DNA of 64,000 bases from the NCBI GenBank assembly GCA_031835245.2, contig JAVKOQ020000061.1:1-64000 (forward strand), written 5' to 3'. The notes under the pieces were generated by a model. The model was not told the origin of the DNA, did not search any database, and saw nothing but the letters and a program-made list of their open reading frames with translations. The translations under genes were made by a program, and so were the position numbers. The DNA is from Balamuthia mandrillaris (lineage: Eukaryota). Below are positions 3,075-38,242 of this stretch, one piece after another. Numbering within the stretch: position 1 is the stretch's first letter; the number at the start of each line of letters is the position of its first letter.

Positions 3075-4422
3075 ATGCAAGAGGAGGAAGAAACGATGCT
3101 CACCGCAGAGACCTTCTTTCTGCCCGACGAGATCTTTTTGCAGGTGTTGGAGGGGATCCCTGCAAAGGACCTCCTGGCCTCCGTGTTTCTCGTGTGCAAA
3201 CGGTGGAAGCGTAAAGCGTCCGATGACTCTTTGGTTTGTGTGTTTTTTTTTTTTGTGAGATTTTATTTTTGTTTGTAACCAGAAATTGTTTTTTTTTAAG
3301 TGGAAGTCCAAATGTGCTTTGAGGTGGGGCTCTGATGCGGCCCATGAGGCACAGCACTGTGGCGTCACTGATTGGCTGGCTTACTTTTCTGAAAAGTACT
3401 TTTTTGTTGTTCTCCTCGTTTGCTTTGCTTTGCAGCTTGCTCTCTCTCTCTTCCTCCCTCTCCCTCTCCCTCTCCCTCTCTCCCTCCTCCTCTTTTCTAA
3501 CTTTTCTCTTCTCTTCGTTCGTGTGCTCTCTTTGGTTCATTCTCTTGCCGTCTTGCTGTCTTGCTCTGCTCTCCCTGCTCTCCCTGCTCTCTCTCGGCTC
3601 TCTCTGCTCTCTGCTCTCTTGTTCAAAACATAGAGTTCGATTCGAGGCTTTGCCGCTGTTGCCAGTTACTTACCGCAGCTCCATGAAAGGACCTTACCAG
3701 CCCTATTACTCCAACACTGCTTCCACAGAAGACCTCCTTTCCATCAGGAACTTCTTTGAGGTCGGAGCTTTCTGTTTTCAAGAGGGGCAGCTCGCTGAGG
3801 CAATTCGAGCTTTGGAGGTGGAGGTTGTGCGACATCCTATGAACCATCGAGCTTGGGCCTTGCTTGCCAAAGCTCATATGGAAAACGATTGCGACACACC
3901 GTTCGTTCCTTCTTGTTCTTCTTCTTGTTGTTCTTCTTGTCATAACTTTATGGGTGTTCTTTGTTATCTGCTGCTTTCTACTTTACAATAACGGTTGCTA
4001 ATACCTTTGTTGAACTAGGTCGATTTACTGTGCCTGCACAGCGCTTAGAATAGAACCAAGCAACAGAGACGTTTTGTTGGATTTAGCAGTCAGCTTCATT
4101 AACGAAGTTGAAAGTGGCCATGTTTGTTCTCTCTCACACTCTCCCCCTCCCTCACTACTTTCACTATTAATACTGACGACAACGGAAAAAAACAAAACAC
4201 AAAGGCCAGTTACTTTTTGTCGCAATGGCTGTTATATTCTCCTTACAAAGCCAAGTTGGAGGGCTTTACACAATCCAACGTTTCGATGTTTTCTGAAAAC
4301 GAGTTCGCATCAGCAGGCAATTCACTCTCCGCGTTGAAAAAAGTGTTTTCAGAGATTATCGAGGAGCATCCTGATGACGTTGAAGTTAGAATCACTTTAG
4401 GTTTGGCTTCTCTGCTATTCAT

Positions 4423-4463
<41 letters not shown>

Positions 4464-7023
4464 TTCTCTCTCTTCTCTCTCTCTCTCTCTCGGTTTTCTG
4501 TTCTATTTTCAACATTTCACTTACGGAGACTTGAAAAAAGGCGTGCTGGAAACAGCTTCGTTCGACTTTACAAAAGCAATCCAACATTATGAGCAAGCTC
4601 TTAAAGTGGACCCCACTAACTACGCCTTGTGGAATAAACTTGGTCAGTCTCCTGCATTCTCTTTTAGGTGTTTTTAAACAAGACATCATTCATTAATGCC
4701 ATATTACATTCTATATCAGGAGCAACACGAGCCAACTCTACCCTTGCCCTCCATGCCTGTATGTCCAATCTCTTTCATTTTTCATGATTACCTCTCTAAC
4801 TAATGGAGTTTTACTGAACAATAAGGCCATGCATACCAAGAGGCTCTTCGTTTACGTCCAGGATACGTTCGCTGTTTGGCCAACGTTGGCATCGCCCATC
4901 AATTAATGAACAGTCCTCGGACAGCTGTTGCTTGGTGGACCACTGCTCTCTTGTAAGACCTTTTTCCCCCTCCTTTCTTTTCTTCTTTTTTTTTTCCGTG
5001 TCCTCACTTTCGTTTGTTTACTGCAGGCGCAATCCAAATGCAAGACACATATGGGACTATCTCCGAATGCAATTCTTGGAGGATAACACGGAAACAGCTC
5101 AATTAAAAGAGGCAGTTACACGACAGGACGTTTCTTGGCTGCAAAAACACTTTATTGATGAGGAGACCGAACCTCTTTCCGTCATTCCTCCAAATCACAA
5201 CGAACAAGAAGACAGGCCACCAATATCAACGACTGAATCAACAGTGGACTCTTTTTATCAAGATTGGCTACGAAACATGAATCAAGAGTCGGGGAGTGAG
5301 GATCCTCAAGTAAAAGAAGAAGAAGAAGAAGAAGAAGAAGAAGGAGAAAAAGGAGCACCAGAAGAAATGAAGGAAGAAGAAGCAAAACCACAAGGGCGAT
5401 TGTCATTTGCTGAAGTTATGCGGATGATTCAGGAAGGAAAGACGCCAAGCGATGTTCAGCAGATCGATGATAAGCCGCCAAACCCGAATGCTCCGATTGT
5501 GAAAGGCCAAAGGGCTGCTCCTTTGAAGGTATGTATATGTTTTATTATTTCGTTTTCTCGACGACTTTTCTCTTCCACGAATAACCGAGAATTACTTTCT
5601 TAAATAATAGCCGTGGCAACGTGCTAAGAAAGAAAAAGAAACTACATCAATAGAAAAACAAGCGGTAGCAACACAGCAATTCACCAACAACACTAACAGC
5701 AGTCTTCTTAGCAGTTCAACACTAGCGTCAAACTCTGGTACCAGCAGCAACAGCACGTCAACAGTTGCTTTTAACAACTTGAACCAACAACAAACAGACA
5801 GCACAATCACTTCCAAAGGAATGCCCATATTTACAGTTGACGCTTTCACTTCCAAGGTTCTTTCTTCTTTTTTCTTCTACCCTGTGTTTATTGTTAACTG
5901 CTTATTTCATCATGGTTAGCCTTTTGCAGGAAATCCGGCAGCAGTTTGTCTTCTACCCTTTCCCTCAGCTCTTTCCGAAGCTCTCATGTCAAAGATTGCC
6001 GCCGAAATGAATCTCTCGGAAACAGCTTTCGTTTGTCCTCTTCCTCTAGATCCTCTTTCCTCCACTCCTTCGGCAACAAGTTACAAAACAGCGAAGCGTT
6101 TTGGTCTTCGGTGGTTCACGCCTACCAACGAAGTGGCTTTATGCGGACATGCAACCTTGGCCACCGCACATGTTCTCTTTCATGAAGTTAAAGTTCCGCT
6201 GAACAGCATCACGTTCAGCACTCTTAGTGGAGACCTCATCGTGGAACGCAAACGCGTTGACGAAAGGCAAAAGGAACAAGGAGACTCGGAGGAAGGAACG
6301 ATGATGAGCATGAACTTTCCCCAAGGATTTCCTGAACTGGTGGAAATGCCAGTTGAATCAGTGGTTCTTCCTTTGTTAGGCGCCATGGGTTTACACCTAT
6401 CCGATCTTCTTCCTGTTCCTGCTTCTTCGTCTTTGTCCTCTCTTTCTTCATCTGCATCCTCTCAACTGTTTTCGTTTTGTCAGAAAACGAAAAAGTTGGT
6501 ATTGCACCTCAAGTCAGTTCAGCGGCTGTTAGAAGTGAACCCGGATCAAAAAGCGTTGCTGGCTCTTCGGTTTCCCTCCAATGTTCCTGTTCGCGGTGTT
6601 ATGATTACCACTCTCGGCGGTAACTCTACTCTCTTGTCTTCTTTCCCTTGCTACGAGGGTGAGGAGGCTCTGAGACTAAGAGAAGAAAGCATTGCTGTCT
6701 TTCCAACTTGGGATCGTTACGACTTCATTTCACGGTACTTCTCTCCGTGGAACGGCATTGAAGAGGATCCTGTACTCATTTCTCTCTCACTTCTGTCGTT
6801 GCTTACTTCTGTCTTACGTTTTTTCTGATTTGAAAAGGTAACTGGATCAGCACATACAGTATTGGCTGTTTATTGGAGCGAGCTTTTGGGAAAAGACGAA
6901 CTAAGAGCGTTTCAGGCAAGCAAACGTGGTGGTGAGCTGTTCATCCGGTTGGATCGTAGTAGTGGGCGGGTTAGTTTGGAAGGCACCGCCGTCACAGTGT
7001 TTGGCGGCCGACTTCGTGTTTGA
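3075..7023 (+). CDS. Multidomain fusion: F-box + PEX5-like TPR + KPWE-like domain + PhzF/PBLD-family isomerase
   Basis: F-box LPDEIFLQVL...VCKRWK. PEX5-like TPRs AWALLAKAHMEND, LDLAVSFINE, ALWNKLGATRANS, PGYVRCLANVG, HIWDYLRM. KPWE-like LSFAEVMRMIQEGK...PPNPN...LK|PWQ. PhzF motifs VDAF..PFAGNPAAV, EMNLSETAF, LCGHATLA, EDPVTGSAH. I could join all exons in frame with GT-AG introns; stop TGA at 7021-7023. Confidence 0.8.
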
Positions 7024-9611: not shown

Positions 9612-12600
9612 TTACTCAGAGGCAGGAGACATCTCCATTCCGTCCTCCTCCCCAAAGTTGACCTTGGTGCTTCTCCTGCTCCTTGCTTCTTTGTTGTATG
9701 CTGGTCACACACCACACCTGTCAGCTGCAATCAAACACACCAAAAGGAAAACAACGCAGAGACATGTCCAGCAGGAATGTTACCTTTGTTTCGTTTCCAA
9801 ATGATAAAGTATCCAACCGCGATGACAACGACCACGATGATGAATGCTGAGGGCACCAGCGCAGCTGCCAATATGGTGACCAGCTCGCTGTCTCCCCCTG
9901 AATCGTTGCCCTCTCCGTCGGTGTCCTCTCCTTCATTTAAGAGAACCGCAAAGTCGGAGAAATGGTTTGTCCGTCCAATCACCATTAGCTCTGTGAACCC
10001 ATCACCCTCCCCCAAAGTCCTGTTAGCCTCATCACTGGAAGAATTGCTGAGAGCATAAAGCTCCAGAGGATCAGGATTGCATTCCCAGCGCCCTGCATCC
10101 TCGTTGATGAAGGCCAAACAAACGTCGTCCAACGAGACACCATCCGGCAAGACAACGGCGAAGATGAGCAGTATGTCGTCTTCAAACGTGGTCACTTTGC
10201 GGAAGGACAGTTCCACCAGGGAAGAATAGACCTTGGAGAGACGAGCGCTGATACGTTCTTCACCTCGGCCCTCGTCAGATGCATCCCCTGAAAGAGGAGA
10301 GCAAGTCGGTAACATTGAAAGAGTAATTCAAAAAAAAAAAAAACAGGTTGAAAGTACGCACATCCCAAGTCACTGCTACTGTCGCCATCGCCAGAGTAGT
10401 CCTTTTCACCAGGAAAGAGGTATTGAAGAACGTCATCAAAGCTTTTGGAGTTAATGCTGAACTCTTCATCCTCAGCAAAGTTAGCTAAAACTTCTGGAGG
10501 TATCTCCACAGACAGCAAAGCATCGAAAGAGGAGTCTCCAGCATCGGTGGCTCGGCTCTCAGGCACCGTGATGACGAATTTTGTGGTTGGCTGTTCGCCG
10601 CCTCTCACGGTCAACGAGAATGATTCAGGAATCCTCAGTGCTGCTGGCTGTTTTGCTGACGATTAACGAGAAGGACGGGCCATTGGATGAGATAGAAATG
10701 TACATACCCTGTAGCAAGTAGTAAGTTGGTCAAAAGGCACACAAAGACCAGTGCCGGGGCATGGAACATGTCCTACAAAACATCTAGTGGCAGCGGTATT
10801 GCATTCTAATGGGCCCTGGGTGCACTTCCCTGTTGGACACTGTTGTAATGTTAATCAAAGGTAACTTGGCATCTCTCTGCAATGAGGTTTGACGCACCTG
10901 GAAGTAGGGACACCCTTGTAATGGTACTGCTTCGCATTCTAACGGGAACCGACACATGCCGTCGGTATTACATAGCTTTAGGCCTGGGGGACACAGTACG
11001 TCAGGAATGGTGCAATTCTCTGCTGGATTTAAGCATCTGCCGTAGCACCTGTTGATACAACAAACGAACGAATGAATAAACGAGAAGAGAAAGAAGATGA
11101 ACAAACAATAACAACAGCAGGGCGGAAGTGATGGAGAGCAAAAATGATACCGTTTCGATCTGGTGATAGGACAAGGGGGAACAGGCTTACAAAACTTAAC
11201 ATGTGAGGCACAAGCTCCATCTGGGCATGTCACAGGCTTCTCGGGTGTATCCAGCTTGCATGTGCTTCCTATCCCACATTCAAAGCTAAACCTGACACAT
11301 GTTCCGCTGCTGCAAGCGAAGCACTTGCCTTCCTTCTTGCACGGATCACTTGTTGGCCCGCAAGCAGGCAGCGTGGTACATTGTGCCAATGAGTCAGCAC
11401 AAGCGCCCGAGGGACAGCGAACAACAGCACAGAGGGGCGGAAGAGTAGGGTCTCCACCCAACTGAGCTTTGCAAGCAGTGCTGCAGAGGTTCTCTTTCAC
11501 TTCAGTCTGCTGGTTTGGTGAGACCACCTTGCAGCGAGGCGAGAGGCTCTCCACGCGGCCACATCGTTGATTCTTGTTTGTGAAAGGAGGAGCTTCATCT
11601 CCAGGTTGCAGCTCGATGGTGATGGGAACGAAACAGGCTATATCTTGAGAACAGGTGTCTCTGTCTGCTCTGTTTGCTACAGGTCGAATTCGGAAGGTTT
11701 GTCAAGTTAGCAAAGCAGAAGATGAAGTTGCACAAGAACAAGAACAAGAGATGAACAAGAACAAGGACGGAGGGAAAAGAGTACGATAGACAACGACGAA
11801 CTAACCAGAAAAGGTTGTGTCCATGATAACGACATCAGGTTCTTCGAGTGGTTCCAAGACATCAAAGTTTGCATCATTTGAGAACTGCGTGAGTCTGGCT
11901 TGTATGAAACTAGGGAAGATCTCCTTCAGCTCATCCGGGAAAGGGATAACGCCAAAAGCCCCTCCCACCCAAGCAAAGTTGTCCTCAAAGATCGAGTCCT
12001 CATTTATCCTTAACCTAGCCATGTCCCCAGACCACGCCAATGCTCCTGTTGTTGTTGTAAGTTAGGCAGAATACAGAAAGAACTGAGATGAAGCGCTCAC
12101 CTGCCAGGCCTTGTCTCGCTCTGTTGCTCTTGAACGTCGAGGAGCTCAACGACAGGGTCCCTGAGCGCCAGGACAACCAAGCCCCTCCTGCTGCCACCTC
12201 TGCCTCATTATTGTTGAACAAGAGGCCGCTCCAGGCAGCATTCAAGTTGCCCGACTCGACCCACAAGCCAGCCGCCACTTTGGCCTTATTGTTGAGAAAG
12301 TCTATATCCGCTAAGTAAACCGACTTTTCCACCTCGATGCGCGTGAGGGAGCCTGTTTCTTCTTCCTCGAACCCTTCCGCTTTTGCCTCTCGTTCCTTGG
12401 CACGTGATGGTCGTTCTTCGTTATTGGGCGGTCGGTGTGCGATGAACACTGAAGCTGCTTCTGCGAGGTTGTCTCTGAAGAGGCAGTTTTCGATGTAGAC
12501 TTGGTCGGAGTCTGGCGTAAACAAGCATATATCAGCACTTAACTTGGTATATAGGAGAGAAGAGCAGAAGAAGCAAATTACCAGTCCACAAGCCAGCGCC

Positions 12601-15228
12601 AGTGTTGCCGCTGTTTCCCACAAACTCGCCATGTTTTACTTCCAAGCGTACAGAAGTTGCTCTGAACGTGTTTTATGTACAACCAAGTTTCAGAGTAAGT
12701 GTTATGCATACCGATAACAATTCGTGTTCACAAACAGTACCTCAATGCGCCTTCCTTCTGTGCAATGTTCTTCTGGAACAAACAGTTCTGAACTGTTATT
12801 GTCAACGGAGCATTGACGAAGAAACCTGATGCAAAGACAGAATGAGAGAGAGACAGGACAAAGCAAAGAAGGAAGCAATAACAAGCGGAGGCTACAAACC
12901 AGATCCGCTTTCAGCCTCGTTGAAAGAGAGAATGGTACTGTTTCCACAGTTCATCTTGAAAGTAGTATAGGCAGGGTTAGGCGAGCCAAGCAGACACACC
13001 CCTCCTCCTGTGCAAGACGAAGAATACAAAGAAAAGGAGGAAAAGTAAGTACAAAGAGAGAACAACCAGAAGACGAACAGGAAGACTTCAATACAAATAA
13101 ACCTGGACCATACCTCGACCGCCAGGTTGGTTGTTGCCGTTGAAGCGAACGGTGGGCGGCTCGAAGTATTGCACGTCTTCCATATGAATACCCGCTCCAT
13201 CGAACACGTTTTCTCTGGCATTGTCCTTAACTTCGCTGTTCCCAAGGAATACCACTGTTGCTGCTCTACGAACTGCCACTCCACCTCCTGTGTTATTGTG
13301 GTGTGGTTTTGTTGTAAAGTTTAAACTCTGGTTAAAAGAGATATCAGAAGTATCTTACCATTTATTCTGGTTCCAGGACTCACAGCTCCATTGCGTTCAA
13401 TGGTGACGTTCTCAAAGGTAAGTTGAGTGCCTATGATGCCTTCAAAGAAAAGGCCTCCACCATGCACCGAGCGGAATCCCACTAACTTGTTTTCCGATAT
13501 GGTGGTCCTGCGAAGGTGTGCGGTTGGCGTTGGAGGATCTATTTCATTTGTACGTTTTGCCTCATCGTTTCTTCGCTCATTGTTGAGCGGAGGAGGAACG
13601 GCAGAGAGATAGATGGCACCGCCTCTGAACGTGGCGACATTCTGTTCGAATGTGCTGTCATTGATGTCCAACTGCAATACTTTGATGGAAAGAAAAATAA
13701 CCATGGAGAATGAGAAAAGAGGATATCAGCGGAGATAGCGTGACAGAAAGAGAAAAGAAAGAGAGAGAGAGAGTTTTAGAGGAAACTATACAATTGTGAA
13801 CTTCAAGAGCTCCACCATCAGCATTATCAGCAGCCACATTCTGTGCAAACGTGCACCACCGTAGATAAACACTCTCAGTTCTTGCCACTGACAGGCCTCC
13901 TCCCTTGTTACCTTCATAAGTGCAACACAAAAAGCATATGTTAAACCACACCTGATGGAGTAAAAAAAGAAGCTGTGACCAACCTGTAATGTCGCAAGAC
14001 AGCAACTCCACATTGCCGATTTTCTCAAAGACAACAGTAGGCACATGACATTTGTTCTCCTCCTCCAGCCCGCTCCCTACCGACAAAGACTCTTCGGAAC
14101 TCTCTGCGCTCTCGCTCTCGTAACCACATTCATTGAACTCAATGTAAGAATCGCTCATCTCAAAGTTTGCAACACCTTCCACGTGAAGAGCGACAGCTCC
14201 GAAGGAGTTATGTTCTTCTCCGCTGTAGCTGATCCGCTTGTTGTTTCGGAAGGTAACGCCGACGAGGCTTGCAACAGTGGAGGAAAACGGAGGGCTCGCT
14301 CTTATAGTGACGCTTTTTGTTGTTGACGGTTGGAGTTAGAAAAGTGGTCGAGAATAGAAAAGGAAAGCGAGAATGTAAGAAAGAACTAACCCAGGGGTGG
14401 TTGAACCTTCATTGCCTGCTACTAGACATTCCTCCATCTGAACGCTGGCTCCAACTGGCGACTGTCTCGTCTCTTTTAGTGGTGGCTCCAGCGGGTCCCA
14501 AGCGAAAGCTTGAAAATTGTTCTGAAAAGTCACCCCCTTCAGCGTTACAGAAGCTGGCGACTGAACAGAGATGGCCTTTGAGCTGTGCTCGTGTAGTGCC
14601 ACGTTCTCAAGGGTGATCTGGGAGGGACCGGCACCAGCTTGCACGGAGATGGCAGTGCGGCAGTTGCTTATGTTGACAGATCCACCGCCTCCACCCTTGA
14701 TCACGAGCCCGTGCCGTTTAGGTATGGAAATAAAGTCACTGTCTGTGTTGTTTTGATAGTTTGTTTAACAACCACAATTTTCTCAGAAAAGAGAAGTAGA
14801 GAATAGAACACAGATAGCTAAGATAAAGAGACAGCCAGAGAGCGAACGAGAGAGAGAGAGAGAGGAAAGATAACAGAATTGGTACCTTTGGAAGCACAAC
14901 GAATGCTAACTGTCTTCCCAGCAGCTTGGAGGGTTATGTCCCCAAGAAACTCAACGGGCGGAGCTACGGTATAGTCAAACACCATATCGTCATCGCTCAG
15001 GTGGAACTCGTAAGCGTCTGGTATCAAGCCAAAGGGGAGTATGAATTGGATGTGGTCAGAGGTGCAGTTGTAGCGCCCTTGCGGTTCCACAACCTCACAA
15101 GCAGAGGAAAACCATTGACTGACGTGCACTTCCACTTGAAGGAAACCCTCAGCGCAAGGGGTACAGAGGAACAACACCAAAGCCAAGCTCAACGGAACAA
15201 ATATGACTATGGTTGGTCCCTTCGTCAT
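9612..15228 (-). CDS. Type I membrane protein, paralog A: Pmp-like beta-helix repeats, Cys-rich repeats, GPS-like motif, single TM
   Basis: Signal peptide MTKGPTIVIFVPLSLALVLFLC. FxxN/GGA motifs (FEQNVATFRGGAIY, FAQNVA...GGALEV). CPSGAC/CPDGAC repeats. WEC...RTNHFSDFAVLL. TM VTILAAALVPSAFIIVVVVIAVGYFII. Stop at 9612-9614. Confidence 0.75.
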
Positions 15229-15899
15229 CCCTTGTTGCCACCGCACGTTCTCCCGCGACAAAACAGAACAAACCCCAAAGTTCGTGCAACAAAAAAAAAA
15301 AAGCAACGTTGTTGGAGGTGCACTGCTGGCCCGGTCTTTCGTTTCAAATCTTTTTGCGATCAGAAAACAAAAAAGAAAGGAAAGTTTAGGGTTCTGTTTT
15401 GTGTCGACGTGTTGCCTTTTTAAGGATTTTTAGATGAAGAGACGCAATCAGGTCGACCTGGTTGGTTTTTACACTGAGAAAGAACAAGAAGAAGCAGAGG
15501 AAGAAGAAGAAGAAGAAGAAGAAGAAGAAGAAGAAGAAGAAGAAGAAAAAGAAGAAGAACAAGAACAAGAACAAGAAGAACAAGAACAAGAACAAGAAGA
15601 AGAAGAAGAAGAAGAAGAACAAGAAGTAACAATAAACTAAGAAGCAGAAGAAGAAGAACAAGAAGAAGAACAACAACAAGAAAATGAACAAGCACAAGAA
15701 TAATAAAACGAAGGACGAGATAATACAACGATGATCATTACAAAAAAGAGAACGAGTACAAAAACCTATGAAGTGCACAGGAAACTCACGCGGAGGATTT
15801 CACCTGCAGAACGTTGTAATTATTCTTCAAAACAGTTAAGAAGGCTCCATAAAATGAAATATGTACCGGGGAGAGAAGCCAAAAATAAAACCACATTCC

Positions 15900-18800
15900 T
15901 TACTCGCTAGAAGAGCGAGAAGACATTTCCATTCCGTCCCGGTCGTCGCCAAAGTTTACCTTTGTGCTCAACCTCTTTTTGACTTGCTTTTTGTAAGCTT
16001 TGAAGAGCAGAACAGGAGTGTTAGCAAACAATAACACATACACAAACAGAAAGCAACATGTAACATTACCTTTGTTTCGCTTGTGAATTCGGATGTAGCC
16101 CACTACAACCACCACGCAAATGATTACAATGGCAGCCGGCACCAAAGTGGCCGCCAAGATGACGATCAGGTCGTCGCTTCCTCCTCCTGAACCGTCCTCG
16201 CCGCCGTCGTTGTCTCCTTCGTTCAACAAAACAGCAAAGTCAGAAAAATGTCGCGTCTTTCCCACCACCATTATCTCCTTGAACCCATCTTCCGCCTCTT
16301 CCGATGAGTCCTCTTCACCGAGCTCTGAGTCTTCTTCTCCTGAAGAGTAGAGCTCGATGGGATCAGGGTTGCATTCCCAACGTCCAGCCTCCTCATTGAT
16401 GAACGCCAAGCAGATATCTTCCAGCGAGACTCCCTTTGGCAGGCGAACGGTGAAGATGAGCAGAATGTCGTCGTTGAACTGGGTCACCTTGCGGAAGGAC
16501 AGTTCCACCAGAGAAGAAAAGACCTTGGAGAGACGCGCGTTGATATCCTCTTGATCCACGCCCTCATCCGATGCTGAAAGAAAGAGGAGAGGATCACATC
16601 AACAACTGAAGAAGGAAGAGCTACGAAAGAAGAACTAAAACAAGAAGAGCAACAAAGCGAGAGCAGAAGGAGGAATGAAGAACGTACAACTAAAGTCACT
16701 GTTGCTGGCAATGAAATCAACTTCCTCCTCACCAGGGAACAAATATTGAAGAACGTCATCAAAGCTTTTGGAGTTAATGCTGAACTCTTCATCCTCATTT
16801 AAGCTGGCCAAGACCTCCGGTGGAATCTCAATGGATAGCAAAGCATCGAAAGCAGAGTCTCCGGCATCGGTGGCTCCGCTCTCAGGCACCGTGATGACGA
16901 ACTTTGCGGTTGGTTGCTCGCTTCCTCTCACGGTCAACGAGAACGATTCAGGAATCCTCAGTGCTGCTGGCTGTTATGTTGTTTTATTGAAGTAATGCAG
17001 GAGGAGGAGTTACGTTTCTGAATAGAATAATAAAAAGAGAAAATAAAAACGAACCCTGAAACAAGAAGCCACCTTGTCCAACGGGACACAAACATCGCTG
17101 CCAGGGCAAGGAAGTTGTCCGGAAGGACATGTGGAGCCTTCATTGCATTGCATTGCTGAATCGGTACACTTTCCCGTTGGGCACTATGTATGTTGTGAGA
17201 TTGTTAAAGAATTATAGCGGCTTATGCCCGCTCAAGTGAGAGAGAGACGTACCTGGAAGCGAGAACATCCTTGAAAGGGTACAGCACCACATTCCACAGC
17301 GGTGCGACACATGCCATCTACGTTACACGGCTTTTGGTTAGGGGGGCATTCAACGTCAGGGAGTGTACAATTCTCTGCCGGAAGTAAGCATCGGCCAAAG
17401 CATCTAGATGGGTTGCAAGAGAAATAGAAGAAGATTAGAAAGGACGACGAGCAGGAAAAACGAGGGCTCTCAAGATAGAGGAATGAAGAGAGGGAGAGAG
17501 AGAGAGAGAGAGAGGAGAAAACCTTCTCGGCTTGCTAATAGGACAAGGTGGAACAGGTTTACAGAGTCTGATATGCGACGCACATGCCCCATCGGGACAC
17601 GTCACAGGTGTCTCAGGTAAACCGGTGCATCCACTGACTGCGCCGCACTCGTAACCAAACCTGACACACGCCCCGCCCTTGCAGGTGAAGCACTTGCCTT
17701 CCTTCTTACACGAGTCTGAGAGGGGGCCACAACCAGAAAGGTCGCTGCATTGTGTCAGAGCAGCAGCACAAGCTCCCGAGGGACATCGAACAGCAGGACA
17801 GAGAGGAGGCAGCGTGGGGTCTCCGCCCAACTGAGCTCGACAGTCATTGCTGCAAGTGTTTTGCTCCGCTGCGATTTCCAAGTTTACAGTGACCACACTA
17901 CAGCGAGGGGAGACGCTCTCCACTCGGTCGCAGCGTTGGTGCTTGTTACTGAGGGTAGGGGCGCCATCTGGAGGGTTGAGGTGGATGGTGATAGGGAGGA
18001 AGCAGGCCACGTCTTGGGAGCAGCTGTCTCGGTCCGCTCTGTTGGCTATATGTAGTTTAGAGAGATTGTTATGAGTGACGTTGTTGTAATGGTGGGTGCT
18101 AACACAAGGAGAGCGTATGCGAAACAAACCAGTAAAAGGGGTGTTAAGTATGATGATTTCAGGCTCTTCCGACGGCTCTACAACATCAAAGTTGGGATCA
18201 TGGGCAAACTGGGTAAACCTTGCTTGAATGAAGCTTGGGTAGACGTCCTGCAGCTCCTCTGGATCAGGAAAAACGCCCATTGCTCCTCCCACCGATGCAA
18301 AGTTGTCCTTAAACTCCGAGTTGAGGATTCTCAGCCTTGCGTGGTCACCGGAAACCGCCAATGCGCCTTTGGTGATGTGTTTCGTGTGTTTTGGAGGTGT
18401 CATGAGGAAGGGAAGACGATGAAGAAGAAAGAAGAAACGTAAGCACAAGTAGAGCAAGAAGCAGTCCTGTAGAAAATACACCAGAAACTCTTACCTGCAA
18501 CGCCTTGTCTCGCTTGGTTATTGAAAAAGGACACGGAATCCAACCACACCATGCCAAACTCCCAATGCAACCAAGCTCCTCCTGCCGCCACCTCCGCTTC
18601 ATTGTTCTTGAAGATGAGGTCACTCCATTCCATGTCTACGTGGCCAGAGTGGACCCACAAGCCAGCTGCCACCATGGCCTTGTTTTCGATGAAAAGAAGC
18701 TCGGAGAGGTTGAGACTTCTCACGATGTCTAGGCTTTTAAAGACTACAGCTTCATTCACCTCCTCCCTCACCTCCTTTGTTGAACGTACTTTGGATGGTT

Positions 18801-21366
18801 TCACAGTTCCTCCATCCTCACTCTCAGAGCTGTGGGTGCTGGAAAAGTCAGAAGAGGAGGAAGAAGAGGACGAGTCGTTCGTATCGTTGGTGTATGGCTC
18901 CTGAATGAAGAGCGCTCCCACTCTACCTTGGTTATATTTGAATTCGCAGTTGTTTAGAGTGACTTGATGCGAGTCTGTATATCAGATACAATCAATTGAG
19001 AGAGCTGAGCAGATTTGAAGACGAAAGGAAGAGAAGGGAGAGAAATGGAACAACAGAATACCTGTATTCACGCCGCTGCCATGCCTACCAATATTCTGAA
19101 GAAAGTTGCAATGCAGGATAGTCAAAGCTCGTGAAGTTGCGCTACAGGAGCAAAACATAATATCGAGTCATCTCTTAGTGCTTACTCTTCTGTTAAAAAA
19201 AAAAAAGCAAGAGTAAAAACGCTTACGTCAAAGCGCCTGATTCTGAGGCAATGTTCTGTTTGAAGGAGCACCTCTGAATCGTCACGTCCAACAAAGCAGA
19301 GACGTAGAAACCTGAGCCATCGCTAGCTTCATTCGAAATAAGAGACGTGGTGTCATTGCAATCCATCAAGAATGAAGTGTAGGCTTGAGTCGACCCGACT
19401 CCTCCCAGATATATTCCTCCACCTTATTTGGCACAAGAAAGAAAGAGTAGAAGAAGAAGAAGAAGAAGAAGAAGAAGAAGAAGAAGAAGAAGAAGAAGAA
19501 GAAGAAGAAGAAGAAGAAGAAGAAGAAGAACAAGAACAAGAACAAGAACAAGAACAAGAACAAGAACAAGAACAAGAACAAGAACAAGAACAAGAACAAG
19601 AACAAGAACAAGAAGAGGAACAAGCAGAAGAGCGAAGACGAACAAGATGAAGGTGAGGATGAAAAGTCAAGAAGACCTGCAATAAGGGAAATACAAGCGG
19701 GAGATATAAATACCCAGGGTGTAAGCCTTGTTGTTGCCATTGAGTGTAATCTCAGGCGCTATAAGGTGCCCAACATCCTCCAGAAACATGCCTGCACCAA
19801 GAAATACGTTTCCTTTGGCGTTTTCTCTAACCTGGCTTTGCAAGAATTCCACATAGGCAGCCCTTGCTATGTAAGCACCTCCACCTTATTTTGTTTATGT
19901 TGTTGTTAGTTTGATTGCTGGTTGTTTTTGTTTTTGTGCTTTGAAGCCAGGTACCATACACCAAGGCGTTCTCGTGCAAGGCTCCATTGTGCTGGATGGT
20001 AACCTCATCAAAATACAACTCGCTGTCCACGTTGCCACGGACAAACAGCCCTGCGCCATGTGCGGACTCGAATCTCACTTTGTTGCCAGAGATGGTGGTC
20101 TCAGCAATGGTGGCAGTCAGCGGAGCGGTAGCGCTTCTTGTGCCATCATTCTCTTCACCAATAAGAGACAGCCCGCCTCCTCTGTACGGTGCGATATTGT
20201 CGGTGAATCTGCACCCCTTGATATCCGCCAACACCGCTTCACAAAGTTCAACATAAGAAGAGCGATGCAGCCAAAGGATAGGAGATAAGGTGGCGTACAT
20301 CGGTGGAATTGTAAAGCACCGCCTTCCTGAGGGTAAGCAGCTTCATTTCCAAAGAAGTCACAATCTCTCAAGAAAAGACTGTCCGCTCTTAAAACAGATA
20401 TGCCTCCTCCCTTATTGTCTTCAGCGGAGATGAATAAGACAAAGAATAGAGAACAGAAGGAGAGAAAGGGCGTGGAGATGAGCAAGCACAAAAGCAACAT
20501 ACGTTGAATAATGCACGACCGAATCTCCACGTTTGTTGTATCAGCAAAGACACTCGTTCGTGTAAAACAGTTCCTCTCATCGTCATCTGGCCCAACTGAT
20601 GATCCATCCTCGTCCTCTTCCTCTTTCCTCCACTCACAGTGATTGCTCTCGATGCGACATTCAGTCTCAGAGCGGCTCATCTCAAAGTTGGCAGCGCCTT
20701 GCACCAAAAGAGCGATGGCCCCATTGGAGTCCTCGTCATTGGGATGCTTGCGGAGCCGTCTGTTGTTGCGCAAGACGATGTCGGTGATGCTCACCACTGG
20801 GGGTAAGGACGAAGCCCTTATTGTAATGCTTTGTTTTGTGTGTTGTTTTGCAGTTATTATACAAATGAAACAAAAGAAGATAGGAAGACCAAACGAACAA
20901 GGAGGAGAAGAAGGAGAAGAACAACAAAAAGGAGACTAACCCTGGTGTCCGATATCCTTCGTTTTCCTCTACTATACATCTGTTCAGCACAATGCTGGGT
21001 ACCTGTTGTCTCTCCATTGCTCCTGCTGCTGCTGCTTCTTCGTTCTCTGAAGGTGAGGATCGTCGACTCCGGGAAGGTGACTCCCACACCATCGCCTGAC
21101 TGTTGTTCCGAAGCGTCACGTCGGACATAGAGAGCGAAGCGGGCGCTTGGATAAAGACAGCTGCCCCTTGGTGTCCCGTCATGTCCAAGTTTTCAAGCGT
21201 GACCTTGGCGTCACCGGCGTCGTTTTGCACGAACACGCCATAGCGACAGTTGGAAATGGTGAGTCGGTTAACCTCGGTGCCTTGGATAAGAAGGTCCGTT
21301 GGTTGGAACAACTCGAGAAAGTCCATCCCTGAAGAAGACATGTTAGCTTGCTTAAAGCCAAAACTC

Positions 21367-21411
<45 letters not shown>

Positions 21412-21769
21412 TACCTTGGTAAGTACATCGAAGGGTAACAGGTTCCGTTGTGAGTCGAATGGAAAGCTTGTTGCCTGTAAAGGCCACAGGCGGTACCACC
21501 GTCTCGTCTATCACCAGGTCTCCCCCGCGTTTCAACAAAAAGTGATAGGCATTGGGGAGTTGGTCGTTGATGGTGAAGAACTCAAAGAACGTGGAGTAAC
21601 AGATGTAGTAGGCGGCTGAAACCGCTTCGCAGCCTTCTTTCGTGAGGGTCTTCTCGATGTTGACTTGTACCTCAAAGCCCTTCGCCAAAGCTACGGGCAG
21701 CAGAGCCAAGCAGAAGAAGAGGAACAACAGGGTTGCTGTTAACCCACCCAATGGTTTACTTTCGTTCAT
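15900..21769 (-). CDS. Type I membrane protein, paralog B (tandem duplicate of 9612-15228)
   Basis: Signal peptide MNESKPLGGLTATLLFLFFCLALL. Same domain order: FTDNIAPYRGGGL, CRAQLGGDPTLPPLC, WECNPDP...KTRHFSDFAVLL, TM, tail STKVNFG. Confidence 0.75.
19447..19620. repeat. Compound microsatellite (GAA)n-(GAACAA)n in an intron of paralog B
   Basis: Directly visible; similar arrays at about 750-895, 15480-15670 and 36018-36125. Confidence 0.95.
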
Positions 21770-22225
21770 CCCTGAGGAAGGGTCGGTGCGCCTTCTCTTG
21801 TTTGTTTTGTTCTTGTTTTTTCTCCCTGTTTGCATAAAGCAGAAGCAAAAGAGCGTTAACAGCCTTTTCGGCCTTGTGCTGTATTGCACAAGAAGAAACG
21901 GTTTTATATACCTTTAAAAGGCAACTTCACGAAGAGGTTTTTTTTTTGTTGTTGTTGAGGTGAACACTCCAGGTGATACCAAAGGAATGGGCTTGTTGAT
22001 GTTATTGGGTCGTTGTGTGTCGGGGTTGGTTGGTTGTTTCGGTTGTTGCTTTCGGGAAGTGTTGTTCTTGCTATAGCGACCAATATTAATACATAAAAAA
22101 ACACAGAAGACGAGATGCAATGCAACGCAGCAGCACTCTTTCGTTGGATTGGTTCGTTCCGTTTGTTCGTTTGTTCGTTTTGTGCTGTGTTAAGTGCTTA
22201 CTCTTTTCATGGGGTGTTGTTTTTT

Positions 22226-27219: not shown

Positions 27220-27360
27220 ATTTCTCCGTCGGAGAAATTTGATCTCCGTTTAACCAATAGGGACTAATCGGTGTATTTCTCCGATACTATTAACCAATAG
27301 GGAAGTTTTCGGAGCATTCAAAATCCTCCGGGCGTTTAACGTGCCTCCCAGCATAAAAAC
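27220..27360 (+). promoter_or_regulatory. GST promoter: CCG palindrome, duplicated CCAAT box, TATA-like element
   Basis: ATTTCTCCG-T-CGGAGAAAT at 27220-27238; TTAACCAATAGGGA at 27250 and 27290; CATAAAAA at about 27352. Confidence 0.55.
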
Positions 27361-27431
27361 CGCTTCTCGCTTCTTGCTTCAGTCCTCAACACTCAACAGA
27401 ACGAACATCACTCTCACCAACTACACACACA

Positions 27432-28204
27432 ATGTCCGTCGCAAAGCCTACTCTCACTTACTTCAACGGCCCCGGTCGCGCTGAGGTCCCCCGCCTGCTC
27501 CTCGAGCTGGCCGGCGTGGACTACGAGTGGGTGGGCTTCGCCTACAAGGGCTCCCCCGGCCCCGACTGGGCCGAGTACAAGAGCAAGCACGGGGAGGAGC
27601 TGGCCTTTGGCCAGGTGCCCCGGTACCAGGAGCCCGAGGGTCTTGACCTCGTCCAAAGCAACGCCATCTCTCGCCACCTTGCCAACAAACACGGCTTCAA
27701 TGGTTACCTTTCTCGCTCTCTCTCTTCTCACTCTCTCTCTCATGCTATCAAGATCGACTTTGTCAAACTCATCTTCTTTTCTTCTCTTTCTTCTTCCTGT
27801 TTGTTTGTTTGTGCACAAAAGGCACCAACGAAACAGAAGCTGCTCTGATCGATCAGTTCAGCGAGGGAGTGGGGGAGTTTGCTACTGCCGGCCTCAAGGT
27901 GATTTTTGCTCCCGAGGGCGCCAACAAGGCCGAGCTCCTCGCCAAGTTCCTCTCCGAGGACCTGCCCAAGTGGCTGGGCCACTTTGACCGCGCCCTCGCC
28001 AAGAACGGCACCGGCTTCTTCGTCGGCGACAAGGTCTCCTATGCCGACGTCGGCCTCTTCGTCACCTTCAACTTTGTGTTCAAGCTGCTGGAGGGCGCCC
28101 GCGAGGTCTTTGAGGGCTTCTCCCAGGTGAAGGCCGCCTACGAGAAGGTGGCCAGCCTGCCCAAGATCAAAGCGTTCTATGACTCCAAGCCCTATGGCAA
28201 CTAA
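27432..28204 (+). CDS. Glutathione S-transferase (Tyr-type, sigma/alpha-like), one intron
   Basis: LTYFNGPGRAE, FGQVP, QSNAISRHLA, FFVGDKVSYAD; strong C/G-ending codon bias. Confidence 0.93.

Positions 28205-28739: not shown

Positions 28740-38242
<9,503 letters not shown>

Follow-up and report, generated by a model that had tools for sequence, protein, structure and literature searches.

We identify a single gene at positions 3075-7023 of a 64,000-nucleotide stretch of Balamuthia mandrillaris DNA (contig JAVKOQ020000061.1, positions 1 to 64,000, forward strand; hereafter the window) whose 957-amino-acid product joins an F-box, a PEX5-type tetratricopeptide repeat (TPR) domain, a KPWE domain and a PhzF-type isomerase domain. 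By its sequence the KPWE domain is identifiable as a PEX39 module, which the initial annotation of this DNA had missed. Because PEX39 is a described binder of PEX7, the pathway of the type 2 peroxisome-targeting signal (PTS2) is indicated as much as that of type 1 (PTS1). None of the parts is new, but a conserved, expressed protein that unites them appears to have gone undescribed. We tentatively propose, giving the idea slightly less than an even chance, that the protein is a cytosolic adaptor of Skp1-Cul1-F-box (SCF) ubiquitin ligases for non-imported PTS1-type cargo and for PEX7-bound PTS2 cargo or PEX7 itself.

One gene encodes the four modules

A three-frame reading of the window, with junctions fixed by transcript data, yields 12 exons that join into 957 codons plus a stop, free of internal stops (Table 1). 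All 11 introns are GT-AG. The initial annotation had placed the modules in one frame, with introns at 3234-3300 and 5529-5610 and with 5611-5820 forming exactly 70 open codons before the ATG at 5821, and our gene model agrees in each respect. Its further statement that the TPR end and the KPWE domain share an exon holds for most of the KPWE domain, which lies in 5027-5528, but not for the KPWQ motif, which intron 9 splits. Product and database protein KAL6047931.1 (P0001; Balamuthia mandrillaris, 952 aa, 'PhzF family phenazine biosynthesis protein') are 96% identical, and the 37 listed strain differences divide into 22 synonymous and 5 non-synonymous in the domains and 5 of each in the linkers.

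Spliced contigs of one run (X1, which we guessed to be RNA, though its contigs are spliced) contain 10 of the 11 joints, all GT..AG; the eleventh (3901-4018) was deduced from adjoining pieces of contig 1, and the joint within KPWQ was seen only in a contig of this run. Raw RNA-seq reads span 8 of the 11 joints (25, 23 and 10 reads; three runs, about 3-5% of each). Contig 1 (1411 nt) extends as far as 5303 from the F-box exon, with pieces displayed from 3634 on and its other 273 letters made up of exon 2, 3098-3233 and 42 loose letters. Contig 2 (527 nt) starts at 5406, crosses the KPWQ joint and the linker and enters the PhzF exon. A poly-GAA tract within one exon separates the two contigs and is covered by two short allele contigs (5358-5435) and by raw reads at a depth of 1-3; a further run (X2) gave no contigs on 5020-5700. 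The initial annotation had looked to a transcript spanning the interval. Overlapping spliced contigs and reads do cross every module boundary, but no single molecule covering the whole gene occurs among the contigs and reads of the sampled runs. No clusters of read starts or ends were seen between the modules, at low depth. We conclude that the F-box, TPR, KPWE and PhzF modules of 3075-7023 belong to one gene.

In Pfam searches, a check that had been suggested for the spliced protein, gathering scores are exceeded for F-box-like, several TPR models, KPWE_dom and PhzC-PhzF. The F-box model PF12937 (cut-off 24.3 bits) scores 36.1 on exon 1 of the window and 40.1, 46.9 and 42.2 in P0001, its Acanthamoeba counterpart P0122 and the metagenomic locus L001, which are all three of the members having an N-terminus. 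Its best matches in the PDB are the F-boxes of SKP2, FBXO2 and FBXW7. By the Pfam cut-off and by this resemblance to solved Skp1-binding F-boxes, the F-box is bona fide, and it stands in place of the WxxxF N-terminus of PEX5, as had been claimed. It lies near the N-terminus, and the PEX5-type TPR then follows as a C-terminal candidate substrate-binding domain.

Table 1. Features of the studied gene in the window
Feature	Position	Strand	Basis
Whole coding span	3075..7023	+	transcript joints; 96% identity to KAL6047931.1
Exons 1-6	3075-3233, 3301-3395, 3634-3900, 4019-4121, 4205-4400, 4541-4642	+	
Exons 7-12	4720-4758, 4826-4952, 5027-5528, 5611-5856, 5920-6771, 6838-7023	+	
F-box, aa ~14-60, broken by intron 3234-3300	3114..3321	+	PF12937
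PEX5-type TPR and C-terminal bundle, aa ~122-405, exons 3-9	3743..5153	+	human PEX5 alignment, Foldseek, pocket residues
Acidic low-complexity linker, poly-GAA tract of allele-variable length	5154..5393	+	low pLDDT (predicted local distance difference test); shorter in P0001; contig breaks
PEX39 module: amphipathic helix, DDKPPNP linker, KPWQ (split by intron 5529-5610)	5394..5625	+	PF17733
Ser/Thr/Asn-rich disordered linker	5626..5820	+	open frame, low pLDDT, spliced contig reads through
PhzF/PBLD-type isomerase domain, aa 601-957, introns 5857-5919 and 6772-6837, stop	5821..7023	+	PF02567

The PEX5-type repeats and the PEX39 module

The TPR domain aligns with human PEX5 over one 240-aa stretch (E 4e-29). 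Against a profile of 13 canonical-type PEX5 sequences, family members score 123-228 bits (best domain), compared with at most 89 for the other TPR proteins scored, and Foldseek gives target template-modelling (TM) scores of 0.86-0.90 to cargo-bound human PEX5 and TRIP8b versus 0.52 for consensus TPRs. The Foldseek match is not independent of sequence, because the model's alignment held PEX5 rows. These results place the repeats with PEX5, as the initial annotation had supposed. Four family members form one TPR clade (support 100/99) on long branches; since the tree held neither a non-PEX5 outgroup nor a verified amoebal PEX5, it speaks to the monophyly of the family and not to the donor lineage. 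Structure-atlas rows for residues 10-400 were generic bacterial TPRs with TM below 0.5, and KPWE and Peroxin-5 clusters of the atlas, with feature scores of 0.80-0.86, served as leads only.

Pocket residues were numbered from an alignment with 2j9q (offset 311), which reproduces Asn415, Asn526 and Asn561 of PMC3328432; see also PMC9328179. The window protein shares with PEX5 the TPR ring, the C-terminal bundle and the clamp equivalents. Those of human N415, E416, N526, N534, R557 and N561 are retained in all four family members, that of N382 in 3/3 and that of K527 in 3/4 (R in one), so the clamp asparagines noted in the initial annotation are indeed in place. It differs from PEX5 in its F-box, which replaces a disordered N-terminus, in two extra C-terminal domains and in the pocket itself: the equivalent of N568, otherwise invariant, is lost in all four members, a feature that the earlier reading of this DNA had overlooked. 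Specificity may for this reason differ from that for canonical PTS1.

The WxxxF array, the N-terminal recycling cysteine and the PEX7 box, present in most PEX5 proteins of the canonical set, are absent from the family; each family protein has 1-3 scattered WxxxF/Y motifs, versus up to 10 in the canonical set. P0005 (residues ~70-140) and L001 (1709-2168) carry long acidic, Trp-rich inserts in the TPR4 hinge, with one WxxxF each; the insert is shorter in Acanthamoeba and absent from Balamuthia. To judge from sequence, the domain derives from PEX5 and yet is probably not an import receptor. In a complex prediction the TPR scored 0.79 with a 30-residue stand-in ending in SKL (a chance reading-frame end in L013, not real amoebal cargo) and 0.73 with one unrelated control; we give this no evidential use in either direction. 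No genuine PTS1-ending gene was recognised among the ORF ends of the window.

PF17733 (DUF5572/KPWE_dom, cut-off 27) scores 44.3 bits in P0001, 35.3 in P0122, 27.2 in P0005, 31.4 in L001 and 38.5 in P0172. The spacing from the amphipathic helix (hydrophobic moment 0.25-0.50) to KPW is 42 aa in all five, and the AlphaFold2 model places the helix at 483-491. PEX39 uses an amphipathic helix and the (R/K)PWE motif downstream of it to bind PEX7; it also stabilises PEX7-PTS2 cargo and extracts PEX7 from the PEX13 phase (PMC12339391, PMC12173945). With PEX39 (C6ORF226/Yjr012c) and the plant and algal PEX14-PEX39 fusions the window module shares PF17733, the helix and (K/R)PW; where theirs stands alone or on PEX14, the family's is joined to an F-box, a PEX5 TPR and PhzF, with Q or K as the last motif residue in two members. 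In organisms other than opisthokonts, PEX39 usually occurs as a PEX14 fusion (PMC12339391). Read by eye, the published GENSCAN model of Balamuthia PEX14 lacks a helix-PPNP segment and retains just a KPYQ remnant (PMC7549135), which suggests that the module may have moved off PEX14 in Balamuthia.

A separate canonical PEX5, which the initial annotation had proposed to look for, has been reported beside PEX14 in Balamuthia and Acanthamoeba (PMC7549135 supplement), and PEX7 in both (PMC7549135). The studied locus is flanked by PH-domain and WD40 genes and not by PEX14, and so represents a second PEX5 paralog. These amoebae seem to keep peroxin genes in clusters: in B. mandrillaris and A. royreba, PEX5 and PEX14 are arranged head to head (PMC7549135 supplement), and in A. 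castellanii PEX5, PEX14, PEX13 and a PEX11 occupy the near-consecutive loci ACA1_053800, 053820, 053870 and 053960 (PMC7549135).

The PhzF domain scores 188 bits with PF02567 and 106 with TIGR00654 (cut-off 76); the equivalog cut-off of PRK10281 is not reached. Foldseek pairs this part with 1s7j and 4dun. The domain has the fold and motifs of PhzF/YddE/PBLD isomerases, intact in all members and including a Glu aligned to PhzF E45, and differs from them in being the C-terminal domain of a multidomain protein. AlphaFold2 (72-row alignment) gives confident TPR and PhzF domains and disordered linkers; the F-box is modelled at low confidence because of few alignment rows. The window protein itself carries neither a PTS1 nor a PTS2. 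Its hydrophobicity over 19 residues peaks (1.65) within the PhzF fold. Matches to spike proteins (E 0.04 or worse) were dismissed as chance similarity to the Ser/Thr-rich loop.

Related proteins in other amoebae

All four domains occur in three lineages: Balamuthia (P0001), Acanthamoeba (P0122) and a metagenomic lineage (L001 and L002, 94% identical over 992 nt). Among the best 120 of the 127 matches longer than 497 aa (7989 candidates scored), TPR, KPWE and PhzF are combined in P0001, P0004 and P0005, the last from a Luapelamoeba hula transcript. The architecture is thus shared with other Amoebozoa, a possibility raised by the initial annotation. P0122, which belongs to the P0004 cluster, is an uninterrupted 941-aa open reading frame including the F-box on a 2898-nt contig. 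The same cluster holds ELR14885.1 of A. castellanii Neff, a 563-aa model without F-box and TPR, whose absent front is the adjoining model ELR14884.1; in the Neff reference annotation the ortholog is cut in two and partly mis-spliced, a possible reason for its absence from surveys of PEX5 and PEX39. Identity to the window protein is ~35-42% in the TPR, 59-61% in KPWE, 51-54% in PhzF and 28-46% in the F-box.

A metagenome scan with the KPWE alignment yielded 25 loci. One, L007, is an Acanthamoeba-like genomic piece with introns that holds the TPR end, KPWE and PhzF. Ten window introns lie in the span that L001 covers; nine of them are at the same column and phase in L001 and one is off by 2 columns. 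Seven KPWE reading frames from the other 22 loci, all beyond the family, were tested: six are Pex14_N-KPWE fusions and one is a fragment, and the closest relatives of the KPWE module among the sequences compared are PEX14-fused. HMMER against the full library (best 150 of 32131) brought in fragments and one 349-aa Logan protein, P0172, which lacks TPR and F-box and has KPWE almost directly joined to PhzF. In a quick tree in which 21 of 36 inner branches are open, the PhzF of P0172 lies apart from the family clade. P0172 is either a truncated call or a PEX39-PhzF fusion that is older or arose independently. Phalansterium and Vermistella have close PhzF proteins that lack KPWE and stand alone, in Vermistella apparently so. 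P0097, with PhzF then TPR in reverse order and no KPWE, was rejected as unrelated, and none of 161 pattern matches in viral contigs was a relative.

The initial annotation knew of no protein with this architecture, and our literature search, with most subscription papers outside its reach, found no description of an F-box-PEX5-PEX39-PhzF protein; the available text of the PEX39 paper and its preprint makes no mention of amoebae, PhzF or an F-box. The protein has been hidden in databases by its 'PhzF family' name in Balamuthia and by two models in A. castellanii Neff. It departs from the published pattern in which PEX39, except in fungi and animals, comes as a fusion with PEX14, and it connects the PhzF/PBLD family, itself poorly understood, to peroxisomes in a conserved way. 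A natural F-box-PEX5-PEX39 protein also brings two standing questions within reach of tests on one soluble construct: the disposal of non-imported peroxisomal matrix proteins and the control of PEX7 and PEX39 levels.

Possible function, alternatives and neighbouring genes

As an SCF adaptor, the protein would bind Skp1-Cul1-Rbx1 through its F-box. The TPR ring would grip free PTS1-like C-termini, perhaps of a shifted subset of clients because the N568 equivalent is lost, and the KPW motif and helix, like those of PEX39, would bind PEX7 either alone or together with its PTS2 cargo. Having no N-terminal WxxxF array, recycling cysteine or PEX7 box, it would not be expected to cross the membrane, and captured clients would be ubiquitinated instead of imported. 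The weakest step concerns PhzF, whose part might be to dimerise the adaptor or to sense a small ligand, both of them guesses, or to isomerise a small molecule. A broader form of the proposal is possible but on the doubtful side: an adaptor built from import machinery that would read both signals, PTS1 through the PEX5 ring and PTS2 through PEX7 held on the PEX39 module, and would serve as a quality-control or shut-off switch, perhaps gated by a metabolite at PhzF.

A terminus-reading pocket coupled to a ubiquitin-ligase module is familiar from CHIP (TPR plus U-box), FBXO31 and the CRL2 C-degron receptors, none of which, to our knowledge, derives from PEX5 or carries a PEX7-binding module. Further precedents exist for the separate elements. 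SCF-Ucc1 degrades peroxisomal/cytosolic Cit2 and non-imported Cit1 (PMC10104474), a comparable removal of peroxisomal or non-imported enzymes by an SCF ligase; Ucc1 reads a folded enzyme surface by a unique domain, whereas here the reader would be a targeting-signal receptor. In TRIP8b the PEX5 ring has been put to a use other than import (PMC7153792), and Ustilago has two Pex5 proteins of differing specificity (PMC9133605). PEX5R/TRIP8b and yeast Pex9 resemble the window protein in being second PEX5-type TPR proteins with a changed N-terminus (PMC8172628, PMC7153792), and the TRIP8b structure 4eqf matches the window TPR at a Foldseek target TM of 0.90. The amoebal paralog is independent of both, and neither is described, in the parts of those papers available, with an F-box, a PEX39 module or an enzyme domain.

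Several observations weigh against the adaptor proposal. The N568 equivalent is retained in 0 of 4 family members (L/A/A/A) versus 13 of 13 canonical-type PEX5 proteins, and the position counted as S600 is bulky (L/P/R/M); with the long branches, these changes mean that PTS1 affinity may be weaker or redirected. The WxxxF in the hinge insert of two of four members could allow docking and could be a residual PEX13/PEX14 docking motif. KPWE is intact in only 3 of 5 sequences, with KPWQ in Balamuthia and KPWK in Luapelamoeba, although in human PEX39 E-to-A is the least harmful single change in (R/K)PWE (PMC12339391). PEX39 is described as aiding import and stabilising yeast Pex7, not as destroying it (PMC12339391). 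If the protein degraded PTS1 cargo, it would be in competition with PEX5. The Luapelamoeba transcript begins inside TPR2 and has no F-box region, the predicted TM score (pTM) of 0.49 comes with low inter-domain confidence, and the favoured model assigns PhzF no clear role.

The PEX39 module itself offers the main alternative, which we hold to be unlikely on balance and which can coexist with the SCF-adaptor reading. The protein would then be the PEX39 of Centramoebia, its module having moved from PEX14 to a soluble scaffold whose work is to extract PEX7, chaperone it and load it anew, and it would promote import and not degradation; the F-box would mainly limit the protein's own level by auto-ubiquitination, and the TPR would tether it to PTS1 cargo or to the import site. 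The module is complete, with its spacing fixed in 5/5 sequences, and Pex14_N accompanies KPWE in 6/7 tested reading frames outside the family, in keeping with the usual PEX14 fusion beyond opisthokonts and with the KPYQ remnant of Balamuthia PEX14. Loss and excess of PEX39 both impair import (PMC12339391), so dose control matters. Yet the PEX14 evidence is one ab initio Balamuthia model read by eye, and a separate PEX39 is possible, the profile search having scored 250 candidates. An F-box placed beside an intact peptide clamp also speaks for a substrate adaptor, of which this is the customary layout. If the changed pocket is given more weight, the TPR could instead read non-peroxisomal C-termini, as in TRIP8b, making the protein a general C-degron F-box adaptor that the PEX39 module merely localises near peroxisomes. 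The family-wide loss of N568, the changed C-terminal bundle, the long TPR branches and the service of PEX5 rings to other clients in vivo (TRIP8b; PMC7153792) fit this idea; two independent peroxisomal modules kept together in different lineages at ~40% (TPR) and ~60% (KPWE) identity argue for a peroxisomal context and leave it improbable in our estimate.

Still less probable, we think, is that the PhzF enzyme is the main business of the protein, the TPR and KPWE letting it ride oligomeric PTS1 cargo or PEX7 to or into peroxisomes while the F-box sets turnover. Intact active-site motifs throughout the family favour such a role, and P0172 hints at an older or repeated KPWE-PhzF link, though the call for that protein may be truncated; yeast PEX39 stays out of both the YG phase and peroxisomes (PMC12173945), and the literature search found no paper naming PhzF-like proteins, peroxisomes and PEX5 together. 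That two or three adjoining genes have been merged by annotation or read-through is very improbable. The adjacent Neff models ELR14884.1 and ELR14885.1, the lack of a read covering the whole gene and the in-frame ATG at the PhzF start (5821) could be taken that way, but P0122 is unbroken though L007 genomic DNA has introns, spliced contigs and reads overlap at every module boundary without clustered ends at the low depth available, intron positions are common to L001, and the internal Met is not conserved.

The F-box-TPR-PEX39-PhzF gene has a divergent neighbour on the reverse strand at ~600-2620, with a PH domain (Pfam) and across an AT-rich gap of a few hundred bases; it presumably also has an ArfGAP-like zinc-finger motif. 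A convergent WD40-repeat gene (7205-~8900, reverse strand), by eye not PEX7-like, ends ~180 bases from the stop of the studied gene. Long reverse-strand reading frames at ~9700-21900 resemble tandem paralogs of a large membrane-anchored, repeat-rich surface protein, with alike C-terminal segments near 9734-10327 and 15903-16598. Farther along, the reading frame at 27357-28201 (forward strand) resembles, by eye, a glutathione S-transferase, and those at ~29100-37900 (reverse strand), likewise by eye, a DNA polymerase epsilon catalytic subunit.

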